Shown piece after piece: positions 12,703 to 23,770 of a stretch of DNA of 30,280 bases (position 1 is its first letter; the number at the start of each line of letters is the position of its first letter). Under the pieces are notes generated by a model. It was not told the origin of the DNA and searched no databases. It saw nothing but the letters and a program-made list of their open reading frames with translations. The position numbers and the translations under genes are program-made. This DNA comes from a virus. The stretch lies in UHGV virus genome UHGV-0139558, one strand, 5' to 3'.

Positions 12703-13698
12703 GTGACCGTGAGAGCACTACTGACCCCTGAAATTGCCCCGCGTATGGGGATCGTATTGTTCAGGCCAGGTTCAGAGCTGATGCCTCTGTTTATGCAGGG
12801 GCGTGTCCTGCTGGAGCCTGAGCCGGAACGTTATTCATCTTTCGCCAGTGGTGCCGTTCCCGCGGCATCACAACCGCTGGCGGATGATCCTGCCGTTCGG
12901 GCCGTGTTCCGCAATGAGGTAGTGATCCGTCGTGCTGGTGGCGTGGAATGTCTTGAAAGCTGGTTACTTCGTGAAAAAGGCTGCCAGTGGCTTCATTCCG
13001 ACTGGCACAGCGAGAACATGACCACAATGCGACACGCGCCGGGCGCAATCCGTCTGTGCTGGCACTGCGATAACCAGTTGCGCGATCAGTTCACGGAACG
13101 GCTGGAATCAATGGCAACGGATAACTGTGCCCGCTGGGTGTTGTCTGTCGTGCGTCTGGATCTCGGTTTTGATGATAGTCACGTTGTGACAATGCCGGAA
13201 CTGTGCTGGTGGCTGATTCGTAATGACCTGGCGGATGCCTTACCGGAAAGTGCAGCCCGTAAGGCACTGAGATTACCGAAGCCTGTTGTGCCATCTGTCA
13301 CCCGGGAAAGTGACCTTGTGCCTTCAGTTCCTGCCACCAGCATCATCCAGGATAAAGCGAAAAAGGTGCTGGTACTGAAAGTGGATCCGGAGTCGCCGGA
13401 GTCTTTTATGTTACGCCCCAAACGTCGCCGCTGGGTTAACGAAAAGTACACGCGCTGGGTTAAGACACAGCCGTGTGCATGTTGTGGAAAGCCTGCTGAT
13501 GATCCCCACCACCTGATAGGTCACGGTCAGGGTGGAATGGGTACAAAAGCGCATGACCTCTTTGTGTTGCCTTTGTGCAGAAAGCATCACGACGAGCTGC
13601 ATGCGGATACCGTGGCATTTGAAGAGAAGTATGGCTCCCAACTGGAGCTGATATTTCGTTTTATCGATCGCGCGCTGGCGATTGGTGTGTTGGCCTGA
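12703..13698 (+). CDS. DUF968 (YdfU-like) protein with C-terminal HNH-like Cys/His cluster
   Basis: 331 aa; C-terminal 'CACCGKPADDPHHL...CRKHHDELH'; GTG start near GAGG. Confidence 0.65.
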   Translation: MTVRALLTPEIAPRMGIVLFRPGSELMPLFMQGRVLLEPEPERYSSFASGAVPAASQPLADDPAVRAVFRNEVVIRRAGGVECLESWLLREKGCQWLHSDWHSENMTTMRHAPGAIRLCWHCDNQLRDQFTERLESMATDNCARWVLSVVRLDLGFDDSHVVTMPELCWWLIRNDLADALPESAARKALRLPKPVVPSVTRESDLVPSVPATSIIQDKAKKVLVLKVDPESPESFMLRPKRRRWVNEKYTRWVKTQPCACCGKPADDPHHLIGHGQGGMGTKAHDLFVLPLCRKHHDELHADTVAFEEKYGSQLELIFRFIDRALAIGVLA

Positions 13699-13715
13699 TT
13701 TGGTGGAGAAAGTTG

Positions 13716-14081
13716 ATGCGTGATATTCAGATGGTTCTGGAGCGTTGGGGAGCATGGGCGGCGAGTGATAGTTCTGGAGTAGACTATTCGCCTATAGCTG
13801 CTGGGTTTAAGGGGCTTCTTCCCTACACAAGCAAAACACGTCAGGCTTGTTCAGATAGTGATGCATTAATTATTGAAGGTTGTCTTGCTCGTCTAAAGCA
13901 AAAAAAGCCAGATGAGCACTCGCTGCTTGTGGCACATTATTTATACAGAATATCCAAGCGTAAGATTGCAAAGGTGCGTGGAAAGGATGAAAAATTGGTA
14001 CGCATAGAAATACAACTAGCTGAAGGATTTATTGATGGTTGCCTTTCAATGTTGGATGTTAACCTTGAAATGGACGCTTAG
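13716..14081 (+). CDS. Q: Late-gene antiterminator Q
   Basis: Begins 'MRDIQMVLERWGAWAA...AAGFKGL' as in enterobacterial Q/Quu antiterminators; GGAG RBS; sits upstream of the lysis cassette. Confidence 0.7.
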   Translation: MRDIQMVLERWGAWAASDSSGVDYSPIAAGFKGLLPYTSKTRQACSDSDALIIEGCLARLKQKKPDEHSLLVAHYLYRISKRKIAKVRGKDEKLVRIEIQLAEGFIDGCLSMLDVNLEMDA

Positions 14082-14587: not shown

Positions 14588-15529
14588 TTAGTCTCTGCTA
14601 GCGAGCTCATACTGTGCAAGATAGTTCGCGTTATCAATTTTAGCAGATATCATCGCCGTTCTGATATCAGAATCGGATGGATAACCGCTTTTGACAATGA
14701 TTGTCTTTGTACTGACCAATACTTGGTCAAGTAGACTTTTGGGCGTTCTATTGGATGGCTCTGTTACATCAATTTTTTTAATTTTTAGACCTCCAGAACC
14801 TTTTGGAAAAAGTTCAAGTAGTTCCTTAATAGCATCGGTGACAGAAGTTTTTAGATAGTTAAAACCTTGTTTTTTCGGGCGAATCCGACCTCGCATATTT
14901 AATCTTAGATGCGACCCGCCCATACCAACAACCATGTCAATAATTTCATTAGCTAAAGGGTTTTTAATCTTATAATTAGCTTTGTTAAAGTTTCTTGGAG
15001 CAGCAACTATAAGATCGAAACTACGTAGGATATTTCCGTCCTCAAGCAGTTCCTTCATGCTCTCTTGTTTCCAAATGGCTTCAAAAGTGACGCTTTTTAA
15101 ATCAGTTTTGTTATACAAAATGAATGCCAGATCATTTACTTTGGGCCCTATATGGTTGAGGGTCATAGCTAATAAGTCCGTTTCGTAGTAATAGATAAAA
15201 TATGTTCTTTCAACTACAGAATCTTTATCATTTAAAGGAATTGTTCTCTCACTACCTGTAGCATCCTCGATGAACGGTAGTAGGCATTCCCTTCTCCACG
15301 ATACGTAACCAAAGTAACATTGCAGTGTGGTATCTTTTTGAAGAATAACTAACTTTAACCCTCGATTTGGGGTGTCTGTTGTGTAAGTTATTGGAAAAGT
15401 TACAGTATCTGCTGTGGTCATTTGCTCAAAGGCTAGTTTTGCAGCAGATGTGCCATCTTTTTTGCTTCCATTACCAGTGAAAAAACCAACTCTCACTCGC
15501 CTAGTTTTATTCTTATTTTCTGTACTCAT
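14588..15529 (-). CDS. Hypothetical 313-aa soluble protein, first gene of reverse-oriented AT-rich cargo operon (candidate defense/exclusion component)
   Basis: Long ORF in a locally AT-rich segment between Q and the holin gene; no recognisable catalytic motif; 9-nt gap to downstream membrane gene. Confidence 0.55.
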   Translation of the reverse strand: MSTENKNKTRRVRVGFFTGNGSKKDGTSAAKLAFEQMTTADTVTFPITYTTDTPNRGLKLVILQKDTTLQCYFGYVSWRRECLLPFIEDATGSERTIPLNDKDSVVERTYFIYYYETDLLAMTLNHIGPKVNDLAFILYNKTDLKSVTFEAIWKQESMKELLEDGNILRSFDLIVAAPRNFNKANYKIKNPLANEIIDMVVGMGGSHLRLNMRGRIRPKKQGFNYLKTSVTDAIKELLELFPKGSGGLKIKKIDVTEPSNRTPKSLLDQVLVSTKTIIVKSGYPSDSDIRTAMISAKIDNANYLAQYELASRD

Positions 15530-15651
15530 TATCGATCCGAAATAATTTTAGCAACCGTGTGAAAAATACAACAAAAAAAAGAGGAAATCATTAGCGCGGT
15601 CCGCAAAAAACATTGTAATCTGTTAAGAGTGGTTACTTCGCCACACAGCTT

Positions 15652-15680
15652 AAACCCGCCGTCGAGCGGGTTTTGTCGTT
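15652..15680 (+). terminator. Candidate late-region terminator (tR'-like) upstream of lysis genes
   Basis: Stem AAACCCGC / GCGGGTTT, loop CGTCGA, then TTTTGTCGTTTC; lies in a 290-bp noncoding region before the holin gene. Confidence 0.4.
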
Positions 15681-15825
15681 TCTGTGGCTGGGGATTCGTT
15701 GGTCCTGGCCTATTCCGCAGTTCTCCATCGGTTCGGCTTCTTTGATGTTTCCGCTTCTGATTTGCGGTACATGATGTTCCCTCAATTTGCACCTGCTGTA
15801 TCAGCGAGGTGAGAGATAACTACAA

Positions 15826-17141: not shown

Positions 17142-17206
17142 AAGGACCTGTAATTTCATAGAGATGATTCCATGTTAATATTGCTTCTTTAACTGGAGGC
17201 ATATTG

Positions 17207-17692
17207 ATGGATTGGAATATGTGGTCTGCTATTGGGGCTTGTGGTTCGGCTATCGCGTCTTTATGGGCGTTGTGTTATGCACGCAAGGCGTTAAACACAT
17301 GGAATAGACAAGAGCAATTTAAAGTAAAGTTAGAGTTTAAACGAGCTTTACTTGAGCTGGAGGATGCCTTTGAGGCAATGCCCGATAATTGGAATTCCAC
17401 ACAATACAGAATAGCTAGAACAAGAGTTGAACAGCAGTATAATGCTGTTGTTCACCGAGTTGATGATGCAGCACAGCTATATTTCAAGAAAGAAAACCTT
17501 AAATCAGCATACCAGAATGCAGTGAGAGCATGGGTTTTATGTGAAGGGGGGATTAAAGATAAAAGTATACATGCTGAATGGAAACAACTCAGGACTGATT
17601 ATAGTCAATATATTATGACTGGTGGAAATAAAAAGTGCTACTTATCAAAAATAGAAAAAATATATTCTAGAATTGTCGTGTTCATAGATTGA
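17207..17692 (+). CDS. Membrane-anchored hypothetical protein (single N-terminal TM), AT-rich moron
   Basis: GGAGG RBS 8 nt upstream; N-terminal 'WSAIGACGSAIASLWALCYA' hydrophobic helix; AT-rich; between lysis cassette and HNH/terminase. Confidence 0.5.
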   Translation: MDWNMWSAIGACGSAIASLWALCYARKALNTWNRQEQFKVKLEFKRALLELEDAFEAMPDNWNSTQYRIARTRVEQQYNAVVHRVDDAAQLYFKKENLKSAYQNAVRAWVLCEGGIKDKSIHAEWKQLRTDYSQYIMTGGNKKCYLSKIEKIYSRIVVFID

Positions 17693-17738
17693 TTTTTATA
17701 TGAGAGAGACAAGTACTCTCTCATTATGGATATTTTAC

Positions 17739-18089
17739 ATGCCACCACGAACCCCAAAAGCCTGCCGCGTTCGCGGCTGCCGCAATACCACTACTGATCC
17801 GTCAGGCTATTGCGAAAACCACAAAAGCGAGGGCTGGAAGCAATACAAGCCAGGACAATCCCGTCATCAACGCGGTTATGGTTCTAAGTGGGATGTTATT
17901 CGCGTGCGTGTGCTGCAACGTGACAAAGGCCTGTGTCAGTTATGTCTGCGTGCTGGTGTGGTACGTGAGGCGAAAACCGTTGACCACATCATTCCTAAAG
18001 CGCATGGCGGCACAGATGCCGACAGCAATCTGCAGAGTCTGTGCTGGCCGTGTCATAAGGCGAAGACGGCCCGTGAACGGCTTAAGTGA
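17739..18089 (+). CDS. HNH endonuclease (terminase-associated)
   Basis: 'VDHIIPKAHGGTDADSNLQSLCWPCHKAKT' HNH motif with CxxC pairs; directly upstream of terminase genes. Could start at 17700. Confidence 0.8.
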   Translation: MPPRTPKACRVRGCRNTTTDPSGYCENHKSEGWKQYKPGQSRHQRGYGSKWDVIRVRVLQRDKGLCQLCLRAGVVREAKTVDHIIPKAHGGTDADSNLQSLCWPCHKAKTARERLK

Positions 18090-18214
18090 TAATTATTCTC
18101 AACAGCCTGAGGGGAGGGGCGGGTCAAATCTCTGTGACCTGACGTCTTCCGGACTGCCCGCCCCATCGTTTTTTTATACCCGCGAAAAATGAAATTTAAC
18201 CAGGAGTGCCGCAT

Positions 18215-18709
18215 ATGGCTGGAACGGCGGGGCGTTCCGGGCGTCGCCCTAAGCCAACGGCGCGCAAGGCGCTGGCCGGAAACCCCGGCAAGCGAGCCCT
18301 GAACAAAGATGAACCTGTTTTTACGCCCATCAAAGGTGTTGAGCCACCGGAGTGGTTCGCTGAAGAAGAGCTTCCTCTCGCCACGATCATGTGGCAACTG
18401 ACAACCAAAGAACTCTGCGGTCAGGGCCTGCTGTGCGTGACTGACCTCGCAGTGCTTGAGCGGTGGTGCGTGGCCTATGAGTTCTGGCGACGTGCCGTGA
18501 AAAATATTGCCAGACAGGGCAACACCATCACCGGTGCAATGGGCGGCATGGTCAAAAATCCGGAGCTGACCGCCAAAAAAGAACAGGAGTCCGAGATGAG
18601 CAGTACGGGGGCAATGCTCGGACTCGACCCCAGCAGCCGCCAGCGTCTGATTGGCCTGGCGGGGCAGAAGAAAGCCACTAACCCGTTTCTGAAAATTATC
18701 GAATCATGA
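18215..18709 (+). CDS. Terminase small subunit (P27/HK97 family)
   Basis: '[34 protein letters not shown]' N-terminus characteristic of this family; GGAG RBS. Confidence 0.8.
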
Positions 18710-20439
18710 GCCGGAAATCTTACCCCAACGTAAATGCTGCAAATCAGTATGCCCGGGATGTCGTGCGCGGAAAGATTGTGGCCTGCCAGTTTGTGATTCA
18801 GGCCTGCCAGCGCCATCTTGATGACCTGATGGCGGAAAAAAGTAAGTCGTTTCGTTACCGCTTCGACAAGGACCTGGCTGAACGGGCTGCCAAATTTATT
18901 CAGCTGTTGCCGCACACCAAGGGTGAGTGGGCATTTAAACGGATGCCCATCACGCTGGAGCCGTGGCAGCTATTTGTGATCTGCTGTGCGTTTGGCTGGG
19001 TCAATAAAGGCACCCGATTGCGCCGCTTCCGGGAGGTGTATACCGAAATCCCCCGTAAGAACGGCAAATCGGCAATCTCTGCCGGTGTCGCCCTGTATTG
19101 TTTTGCCTGTGATAACGAGTTCGGCGCGGAAGTGTATTCCGGTGCCACGACGGAGAAACAGGCATGGGAAGTCTTTCGTCCGGCAAGACTGATGTGTAAA
19201 CGCACACCCATGCTGACGGAAGCGTTCGGGATTGAGGTTAACGCCTCAAACATGAACCGTCCGGAGGATGGTGCGCGTTTTGAACCGCTGATCGGTAACC
19301 CCGGTGATGGTTCATCACCCCACTGTGCGGTGGTGGATGAATATCACGAGCACGCCACAGATGCGCTTTACACCACGATGCTTACCGGGATGGGGGCGCG
19401 ACGCCAGCCACTGATGTGGGCCATTACCACCGCCGGGTACAACATTGAGGGGCCGTGCTACGACAAACGGCGGGAAGTCATCGAGATGCTCAACGGCTCG
19501 GTGCCCAACGATGAACTGTTCGGGATCATCTATACCGTTGATGAAGGTGACGACTGGACCGACCCGCAGGTGCTGGAAAAAGCCAATCCAAATATTGGTG
19601 TGTCGGTTTATCGCGAGTTTTTGTTAAGCCAGCAGCAACGTGCGAAAAATAACGCCCGTCTGGCAAACGTCTTTAAAACAAAACACCTCAATATCTGGGT
19701 GTCGGCGCGTTCGGCGTATTTCAACCTGGTGAGCTGGCAGAGCTGCGAGGATAAATCACTGACCCTTGAGCAGTTCGAGGGGCAGCCGTGCATTCTGGCC
19801 TTTGACCTGGCGCGTAAGCTGGATATGAACAGCATGGCGCGACTTTATACCCGCGAGATTGACGGTAAAACGCATTACTACAGTGTGGCCCCGCGTTTCT
19901 GGGTACCGTATGACACGGTGTACAGCGTCGAGAAAAATGAAGATCGACGGACAGCCGAACGCTTTCAGAAATGGGTGGAAATGGGCGTTCTGACCGTTAC
20001 CGATGGTGCGGAGGTGGATTATCGCTACATCCTCGAGGAGGCCAAAGCGGCGAACAAAATCAGCCCGGTCAGTGAGTCACCCATCGACCCCTTCGGGGCG
20101 ACCGGGTTGTCACATGACCTTGCTGATGAAGACCTGAACCCCATCACTATCATTCAGAACTACACCAACATGTCCGACCCGATGAAAGAGCTGGAAGCGG
20201 CAATTGAATCGGGGCGCTTTCATCATGATGGCAATCCCATCATGACCTGGTGTATCGGCAACGTGGTCGGCAAAACCATTCCGGGTAACGATGATGTGGT
20301 GAAGCCCGTCAAAGAGCAGGCGGAAAACAAAATCGATGGTGCAGTTGCGCTGATTATGGCGGTTGGCAGAGCCATGCTGTACGAGAAAGAAGACACGCTG
20401 TCTGACCACATTGAGTCCTATGGGATCCGCTCGCTTTAA
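18706..20439 (+). CDS. Terminase large subunit
   Basis: 577 aa; ATPase region '[14 protein letters not shown]', 'VVDEYHEH'; C-terminal nuclease-like domain; ATGA overlap with small subunit. Confidence 0.9.
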
Positions 20440-23722: not shown

Positions 23723-23770
23723 TCACTCAGGGGCGCGGAACCGCGCCCCTGTTCTGACGGGTGAAGAATC

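Follow-up and report, generated by a model that had tools for sequence, protein, structure and literature searches.

The conserved segment at positions 18111-18199 of the viral DNA analyzed here (a stretch of 30,280 nt, hereafter the window) is very probably the cos site of an SfV/SfI-like prophage, and it would work as in the five-step mechanism proposed below. The segment is flanked by the stop codon of an HNH endonuclease gene on one side and the ATG of the small terminase gene terS on the other, and these two genes are co-oriented. That this is a cos site is already known, as it has been mapped in SfI and postulated for SfV. The finding mainly confirms an annotation, namely cos packaging at the site mapped in SfI. 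The block structure of the site and the coincidence of one of its predicted nicks with HNH nickase specificity are by-products of this check.

Prophage context and the mapped cohesive end

The Shigella phages SfIV, SfV, SfI and SfII, together with E. coli phages of this type, match the segment from the HNH gene to TerS at 95–99.5% identity. Over the first 25 kb, the coverage by the best phage record is 74%, at 96.7% identity, and the remainder of the window is mosaic. A lambda-type integrase is encoded on the minus strand (1532-2662), a Q antiterminator gene (13713-14081) is located upstream of the cos region, and a lambda-family holin gene and a contractile tail sheath gene are also found in the window. 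Judged from these matches and this gene content, the window is an SfV/SfI/SfIV-like mosaic prophage that combines a lambdoid regulatory backbone with an HK97-type head and packaging module and a contractile tail.

The HNH gene (17739-18089, plus strand) encodes an endonuclease of the terminase-associated type (Pfam HNH PF01844, E 2.3e-16), and the PGAP name of its homologue at the homologous locus is “HNH endonuclease.” The protein is 40% identical to HK97 gp74 over 65 aa (E 2e-11) and 35% identical to the HNH protein of Bacillus phage Gamma, N.phiGamma, over 115 aa, which is nearly the full length (E 3e-16). The match to N.phiGamma spans both the zinc-ribbon and the HNH parts. By these alignments, the protein is a homologue of gp74 and of the phage Gamma nickase. 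Downstream of the site, the ribosome-binding site AGGAG (18202-18206) precedes the small terminase gene of the P27 family (18215-18709, plus strand; Pfam Terminase_4 PF05119, E 2.3e-21). Its product is 49–89% identical to the TerS proteins of phiP27, phi644-2 and EPP-1, and PGAP names a homologue “phage terminase small subunit P27 family.” The large terminase gene (18706-20439, plus strand) encodes a TerL with ATPase and nuclease parts (Pfam TerL_ATPase and TerL_nuclease), which is 26% identical to HK97 gp2 over 522 aligned positions (E 7e-30). Matches to Pfam Phage_portal, Peptidase_S78 (the S78 prohead protease) and the HK97-type Phage_capsid follow downstream of TerL.

The link to a mapped cohesive end comes from SfI. 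Run-off sequencing of SfI virion DNA, compared with the prophage, showed a 10-nt gap, 5′-TGCCCGCCCC-3′, from which cos packaging was concluded, as postulated for SfV (PMC3636060). In the window this 10-mer is unique and is located at 18155-18164, where it consists of TG followed by the right arm of the inverted repeat described below. Over the interval 18109-18215, the window agrees with SfV base for base, and 18165 is the single position at which it departs from SfI. The SfI record ends with TGCCCGCCCC, and its first base is the one following the 10-mer. In the record of phiP27 (AJ298298), a “cos-site” feature has been placed on the homologous 10-mer, CGCCCGCCCC. The records of SfI, Burkholderia phage phi644-2, Edwardsiella phage EPP-1 and HK97 all have as their first base the one homologous to 18165. 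Thus, the SfI-mapped end, the phiP27 cos feature and the four record starts bear out the initial annotation, which had placed a candidate cos/packaging site between the HNH and small terminase genes. The HK97 background on which that annotation drew could also be found in the literature: the cos site of HK97 is adjacent to its HNH gene, and cleavage at cos is stimulated by gp74 (PMC9410871). Literature searches with the cohesive-end strings returned unrelated papers only.

Some related records begin elsewhere. Those of SfV and SfIV are linearised at the equivalent of 18147|18148, 17 nt upstream of the SfI-mapped end, that of SfII at the equivalent of 18090 and that of ST64B at 18200. The record of Geobacillus virus E2 is not linearised at cos and is uninformative here. 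Record linearisation points are described as conventions in the SfI (PMC3636060) and SfIV papers. Either the SfV-type record starts are conventions of this kind, or the SfV end is placed differently.

The window shares with cos sites of the HK97/P27 type the gene context of HNH and P27-type TerS, the mapped end sequence of a relative and the homology of its HNH protein to characterised packaging HNH proteins. By this comparison the site belongs to the SfI/SfV, phiP27 and HK97 type of cos.

Anatomy of the site and comparison with known cos regions

Related sites were sampled from bacterial genomes by TerS protein alignment, taking one locus per species and anchoring it on the conserved downstream motif. 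This yielded 62 distinct HNH-TerS intergenic regions from Enterobacterales, Aeromonas, Pseudomonas and Burkholderiales. The regions align nearly gap-free, and conservation is limited to 18111-18199: the information content is zero upstream of 18111, where conservation sets in abruptly, and again downstream of ∼18199.

Block A (18111-18134, plus strand) reads GGGGAGGGGCGGG TCAAATCTCTG, within which the left arm of the repeat is located (18116-18123). Its columns G14 and G15 are invariant among the 62 relatives. We considered a G-quadruplex in this block, which was rejected on inspection as there are three G-tracts only (GGGG A GGGG C GGG) and no fourth nearby. Block A is separated from block B by a spacer (18135-18150) of variable sequence, with an information content of ∼0.1–0.8 bit per column, and of essentially invariant length in the 62 sequences. 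A hairpin within the spacer (18135-18150) was also considered; individual relatives have small palindromes there, yet RNAalifold gave no consensus pairing.

Block B (18151-18164) is made up of GGAC (18151-18154, plus strand), which lies directly 5′ of the predicted bottom-strand nick at 18154|18155, and of the 10-nt cohesive end TGCCCGCCCC (18155-18164, plus strand). The latter includes the right arm of the repeat (18157-18164) and would be the 3′ overhang of the top strand at its right end. A18153, C18154 and G18156 are invariant in the 62 relatives, and the junction reads AC|TG in the window and AC|YG across the family.

Block C begins with an A/T-rich proximal part, ATCGTTTTTTTATA (18165-18178, plus strand), which contains a run of seven T residues (18169-18175). 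The T-run is conserved as a DNA motif with the consensus GAATTTTTA. Its length varies, the longest run of T being 5 in 33/63 sequences and 7 in 17/63, and HK97 has GAATTTAA at this position. The distal part of block C, CCCGCGAAAAATGAAATTTAA (18179-18199, plus strand), is more strongly conserved than any other stretch of the intergenic region; CCGCG and the A positions that follow it (CCGCG.AA) are invariant in the 62 sequences, from Enterobacterales to Burkholderiales. This part is a candidate TerS-binding site and may be regarded as cosB-like. The interval singled out in the initial annotation, 18111-18176, spans blocks A and B and ends short of this most conserved part.

Among known phages, SfI and SfV, and also SfII and SfIV, have essentially the same cos sequence as the window, including the 10-mer mapped on SfI virion DNA, flanked by the same HNH, TerS and TerL genes at 95–99.5% identity. 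Apart from the SfI base at 18165 noted above, the site itself is without difference, while the rest of the window is mosaic. The published work on these phages names the 10-mer and not the conserved site of ∼90 bp that surrounds it. The site of phiP27 resembles that of the window in the homologous position of its 10-nt cos, in an identical block A, GGGGAGGGGCGGGTCAAATC, and in an inverted repeat with 8/8 pairs. It differs in carrying the block C variant CCGCGAAATTAAAAATTT and a TerS, 49% identical to that of the window, whose arm is of the type ...GRGRKPKP.

HK97 shares with the window the gene order HNH, cos, TerS and TerL, and its HNH and TerL proteins are homologous to those of the window. 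Its cos region has a G-run plus TCAAATCT starting 41 nt before the right end, GAC at −13 to −11, an A/T block at +5 to +12, and CCCG followed by an A/T tract near +15 to +30, all of which are also seen in the window. In contrast, its TerS is just 15% identical, its overhang is CGCCGCCAAA and the 8-bp inverted repeat is absent. Furthermore, the CCCG and the A-tract are displaced by ∼4 nt, and the top strand of the tract is rich in T instead of A.

The three-part layout of the site, with an upstream element, a nicking site and a downstream region next to terS, resembles that of cosQ, cosN and the TerS-binding cosB in lambda. Lambda has 12-nt 5′ overhangs, a Nu1-type TerS, an IHF site and no HNH protein. 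In contrast, the window has a predicted 3′ overhang of 10 nt, a TerS that matches Terminase_4 only and an adjacent HNH gene. The IHF consensus WATCAANNNNTTR had no match in 18100-18215 when up to one mismatch was allowed, and a lambda-like cosB I1 site was rejected on this basis. Membership in the lambda type of cos was rejected as well, given the Terminase_4 TerS, the adjacent HNH gene, the missing IHF site and an overhang that is probably of opposite polarity.

The inverted repeat and alternative readings of the element

The initial annotation had been built around a GC-rich inverted repeat, for which the coordinates of arms, spacer and T-run proved exact. The left arm GGGGCGGG at 18116-18123 is complementary at 8/8 positions to the right arm CCCGCCCC at 18157-18164 across a 33-nt spacer (18124-18156), and the T-run follows 4 nt (ATCG) past the right arm. 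The element thus reads ...TGA GGGGA GGGGCGGG TCAAATCTCTGTGACCTGACGTCTTCCGGACTG CCCGCCCC ATCG TTTTTTT A.... The repeat is real and compositionally unusual. Perfect 8-nt inverted repeats with spacers of 3–40 nt occur 60 times in the window vs. 19 ± 6 times in first-order Markov simulations, and two with all-G/C arms were observed in 30 kb where 0.07 were expected. The advantage of the local RNA fold over shuffles is modest, with a z-score of −1.97 and 6/200 shuffles folding equally well.

The 62 relatives were used to assess whether the pairing is conserved. For the eight proposed pairs, 69.6% of cells were paired vs. 71.8% after shuffling of the partners, and 488/500 shuffles equalled or exceeded the observed value. 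With the 3′ partner slid by −2, 70.0% were paired. The central C:G pair was unpaired in 46/62 sequences. In the ungapped version of the comparison, all 8/8 Watson-Crick pairs were present in only 6/63 sequences, with a mode of 3–5, and a left arm formed 4.25 pairs with its own right arm vs. 4.48 with the right arms of other sequences. RNAalifold predicted 0 pairs and no consensus structure for the 62 relatives, and an Rfam scan of 17600-18400 on both strands gave no match at E ≤ 1. From this comparison, the hairpin-like symmetry seems to be incidental, with no selected hairpin or cruciform. The 8-bp repeat would result from the G-richness of block A and the C-richness of the cohesive end, 33 nt apart.

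These data bear on two other readings of the element. It could be a Rho-independent terminator of the HNH/lysis transcript, as the initial annotation had suggested as its alternative, in which GGGGCGGG and CCCGCCCC form the RNA stem and U7 releases the polymerase. The element sits directly behind the HNH stop codon with its T-run 4 nt past the stem. The plus-strand RNA does close the 8-bp G/C stem, with a minimum free energy of −25.1 kcal/mol for 18111-18176, so a weak transcriptional effect is possible in this particular sequence. However, the geometry is poor, as the stem encloses 33 nt and ends 4 nt before the U-run, and a terminator scan that called 15 other sites in 6 kb did not call this one. 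The stem shows neither conservation nor covariation in the 62 relatives, whereas the T-run is kept, independently of the stem, as the GAATTTTTA motif in common with HK97. HNH and terS also belong to a co-oriented, Q-antiterminated late operon downstream of Q, and transcription must therefore cross cos to express the head genes. By analogy with lambda, where late transcription is subject to Q antitermination, read-through of the cos region is expected in a lambdoid prophage. We therefore consider a terminator very improbable, and it finds no comparative support; as aligned, the T-run belongs to a conserved A/T motif of the DNA and is no terminator tail. The same comparison argues against the inverted repeat being the signal itself, through extrusion of a cruciform or hairpin or through symmetric binding of a dimeric protein, recognised by the terminase or HNH protein at cos. 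An all-G/C repeat of this kind is rare by composition, one of its arms falls exactly on the cohesive end, and phiP27 has the complementarity in full (8/8), Bacillus phage Gamma almost in full (GGGGCGG / CCGCCCC). Nevertheless, most relatives lack the full set of pairs, the arms do not co-evolve and a slid register pairs equally well. In addition, the cos of HK97, which is functional, biochemically studied and of the same architecture, lacks the repeat, and folding with DNA parameters gives −12 kcal/mol only. We give this reading hardly any credence. Of the proposal that the repeat is a cos element, then, the location within cos holds; the repeat as a functional unit does not, its right arm being the cohesive end and its left arm a separate G-rich block, without covariation between the two.

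A further possibility is that the prophage is defective and that the cos-like sequence is a relic no longer in use. Defective relatives exist in E. coli, and the name ymfR of a neighbouring gene in a homologous prophage points to e14-like elements. Yet every packaging or head ORF in the window has its full length and matches its family strongly, and the cos block is present in 1113/5426 complete E. coli genomes (∼20%), mostly at ≥95% identity, as well as in isolated phages. We regard a relic as unlikely, and the question it raises is one of activity and not of the identity of the site.

Predicted nicks, terminase binding and proposed mechanism

The polarity of the overhang can be deduced from the SfI mapping. 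The 10-mer is missing from the SfI run-off reads of both sides, as would be expected of recessed 5′ ends, and we infer a 3′-protruding overhang of 10 nt, as in HK97 and in Clostridium phage phi3626. Such an overhang would imply nicks at 18164|18165 (top strand) and 18154|18155 (bottom strand). For HK97, 10-nt 3′ overhangs have been described; the motor stalls at cos through the action of TerS, and cleavage is stimulated by the HNH protein gp74 (PMC9410871).

The predicted bottom-strand nick falls at the invariant AC|YG, and this matches the published specificity of terminase-linked HNH nickases. On plasmid DNA these enzymes cut CG^GT (= AC^CG), with AC^TG as a star site, and N.phi3626 cuts RT^CGV (PMC3592412). 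In phage Gamma, with the ends GTAC|CGCCGCCCC, the 5′ edge of the cohesive end coincides exactly with the published nick site. The same exact coincidence is seen in phi3626, where the ends are GGT|CGCAGTGTC with an annotated 9-nt 3′ overhang. In phi105, the 7-nt cos that has been annotated and the predicted nick disagree by 1 nt. We propose that the HNH protein nicks the bottom strand and that the TerL nuclease nicks the top strand. The sequence around the top-strand nick is poorly conserved, which would fit a cut placed by distance and not by sequence. The assignment of the HNH nick draws on enzymes of Gram-positive phages, and the AC|TG of the window is only a “star” site for N.phiGamma. HK97 gp74 has moreover been described as non-specific, so that the AC^CG rule can be extended to the HK97/P27-type family with less confidence. 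For HK97, the same division of strands between HNH and TerL was offered in 2024 only as one of two possibilities (PMC11331095). In several phages, the published nick specificities coincide with the 5′ edge of the cohesive end, which makes for a testable strand assignment, with HNH on the bottom and TerL on the top strand. If AC|YG is indeed the HNH nick site, this would settle which enzyme cuts which strand, a point left open for HK97 in 2024.

TerS of HK97 binds +15 to +29, where it reads the C:G pair at position 21 and the adjoining A-tract, and its N-terminal arm (Lys4, Arg5 and Arg7) lies in the minor groove (PMC11331095). In the window, CCCGCGAAAAATGAAATTTAA is found at +15 to +35 from the cut and so overlaps the position of the HK97 TerS site. 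The distal part of block C also resembles that site in sequence, with TA-CCCG followed by an A/T tract. Among the relatives, the block C variants ...GAAAAATGAAA and ...GAAATTAAAAA track TerS N-terminal arms of the types [RK]SGRR[PA]KP and GRGRKPKP, respectively (9/9 vs. 0/51), but the arm and the block are <60 bp apart, so linkage alone could produce this covariation. At two loci the arm reads RSGRKPKP in place of [RK]SGRR[PA]KP. Identity over the whole of TerS correlates only partially with the type of block C; the signal is confined to the N-terminal arm, and arm and block C still match at loci whose TerS otherwise more closely resembles the other type. We infer that the distal part of block C is the candidate TerS-binding site, and the covariation with the arm would fit TerS binding.

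Block A has counterparts at a fixed distance from the nick in other HNH phages. A G-run together with a (T/A)CAAAT motif is common to HK97, Bacillus phage Gamma and Clostridium phage phi3626, 30–31 nt before the bottom-strand nick. The distance from the start of the block to that nick is 31 bp in the window, in HK97 and in phage Gamma, and it is 30 bp in phi3626 and phi105. In phage Gamma and phi3626, the G-run (GGGTAGGGGCGGG and GGGGAGGGGTAGGG, respectively) is thus placed like that of the window relative to the AC|CG or GT|CG junction at which the cohesive end starts. In phi105, the AAATCCCT part is kept at an equal distance, 30 nt, but after a C-run. Unlike the window, these Gram-positive HNH phages (Gamma, phi3626 and phi105) have overhangs of 7–9 nt and an unrelated downstream TerS region, and similarity between their TerS proteins and that of the window was not detectable by BLASTP. 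Cue and Feiss reportedly found, in 1998, that lambda cosQ is required for the bottom-strand nick at termination. Block A may be a cosQ-like element or a docking element for the HNH protein or the terminase.

The five steps that we propose for the site of the window are as follows. Late in infection, the concatemer would be cut at the site such that every virion chromosome ends in TGCCCGCCCC, as has been shown for the near-identical SfI. The cut would leave a 3′-protruding overhang through nicks at 18164|18165 on the top strand and 18154|18155 on the bottom strand, as suggested by the SfI run-off gap and by the overhangs of HK97 and phi3626. The HNH protein (17739-18089) would nick the bottom strand at AC|YG, and the TerL nuclease would nick the top strand 10 nt downstream. 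TerS would bind CCCGCGAAAAATGAAATTTAA (18179-18199) and thereby position and halt TerL. Finally, block A (18111-18134), fixed 31 bp upstream of the bottom-strand nick, would be one more recognition element, with a function comparable to that of cosQ in lambda.

A broader reading joins these observations into a three-block cos machine common to HNH-dependent cos phages from Proteobacteria to Firmicutes. In such a machine, AC|YG (18153-18156) would be the HNH protein's own bottom-strand nick site, the TerL top-strand cut would be fixed 7–10 nt away, and the G-rich block A, fixed 30–31 bp from the nick, would be a cosQ-like docking or termination element for the HNH-terminase complex. We put this forward tentatively, at somewhat less than even chances.

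The cos block has been left unannotated in E. coli genomes. The block structure of 18111-18199 could be used for annotating cos sites and predicting virion ends across a large prophage family, and the description of the site could help to flag DNA, such as satellites and plasmids, that is packageable by prophages of the SfV/SfI-like family.

Genome record ends and copies of the cos site

The deposited 'linear' genomes of SfV/SfI-type phages were found to open at differing points around cos, the packaging site between the HNH nuclease and small terminase (TerS) genes, in the region homologous to 18090–18200 of the window. Converted to window numbering, the record of SfII opens at 18090, those of SfV and SfIV at 18148, that of SfI at 18165 and that of ST64B at 18200. 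Record ends in this group of phages are not usable as mapped termini without checking.

In complete E. coli genomes, the 99-bp cos block is present in up to four copies per genome, and 13 copies are located on plasmids. Non-phage replicons or satellites could therefore carry a packageable cos of the type seen in the window.

Variation among relatives

Upstream of cos in Bacillus phage phi105, AAATCCCT is kept at the usual distance, but the run that precedes it is C-rich (CCCCCCACCC) and not G-rich. The nick predicted for phi105 by the published RAC^CR specificity falls 1 nt off the annotated 7-nt cos. In the TerS of Edwardsiella phage EPP-1 (L010:48-650), a segment of about 37 residues in the N-terminal region is tandemly duplicated. 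This two-copy arrangement is absent from all other family members that were compared.

Accessory genes and putative cargo positions

The packaging HNH gene is directly preceded on its 5′ side by a 162-aa ORF (17204–17692, + strand) with no match in Pfam or PADLOC. In E. coli ECONIH5 the equivalent slot is occupied by a DUF6236 protein, and the cargo carried at this position next to cos seems to vary. Between the Q antiterminator and holin genes there are two overlapping ORFs of 313 and 87 aa (14588–15792, − strand). As neither of them matches any Pfam or PADLOC family, we consider this interval a slot for moron-like cargo. The holin gene of a homologous E. coli prophage is immediately preceded by the end of a DNA methyltransferase gene. 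The Nin-like region contains the window's second HNH-like nuclease gene (DUF968/HNHc_6; 12703–13698, + strand), which is separate from the packaging HNH.

The integrase gene (1532–2662, − strand) adjoins a region (1–1508, + strand) containing an AAA_15/AAA_21 ATPase gene that is cut by the window start. Its top PADLOC matches are the PD-T4-4_A, PDC-M47A, NsnB and AriA-like models, and it is followed by a 188-aa ORF without a family match. Together the two genes are a candidate two-gene anti-phage defence system, located at or just outside the integrase end of the prophage.

A G/C inverted repeat after the capsid gene

Apart from the repeat at cos, the window has just one perfect inverted repeat whose arms consist entirely of G and C, GGGGCGCG-GAAC-CGCGCCCC (23730–23749), which lies 8 nt past the stop codon of the major capsid gene. 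It has no strong T-run downstream and probably represents a stability or attenuation hairpin following the capsid gene.
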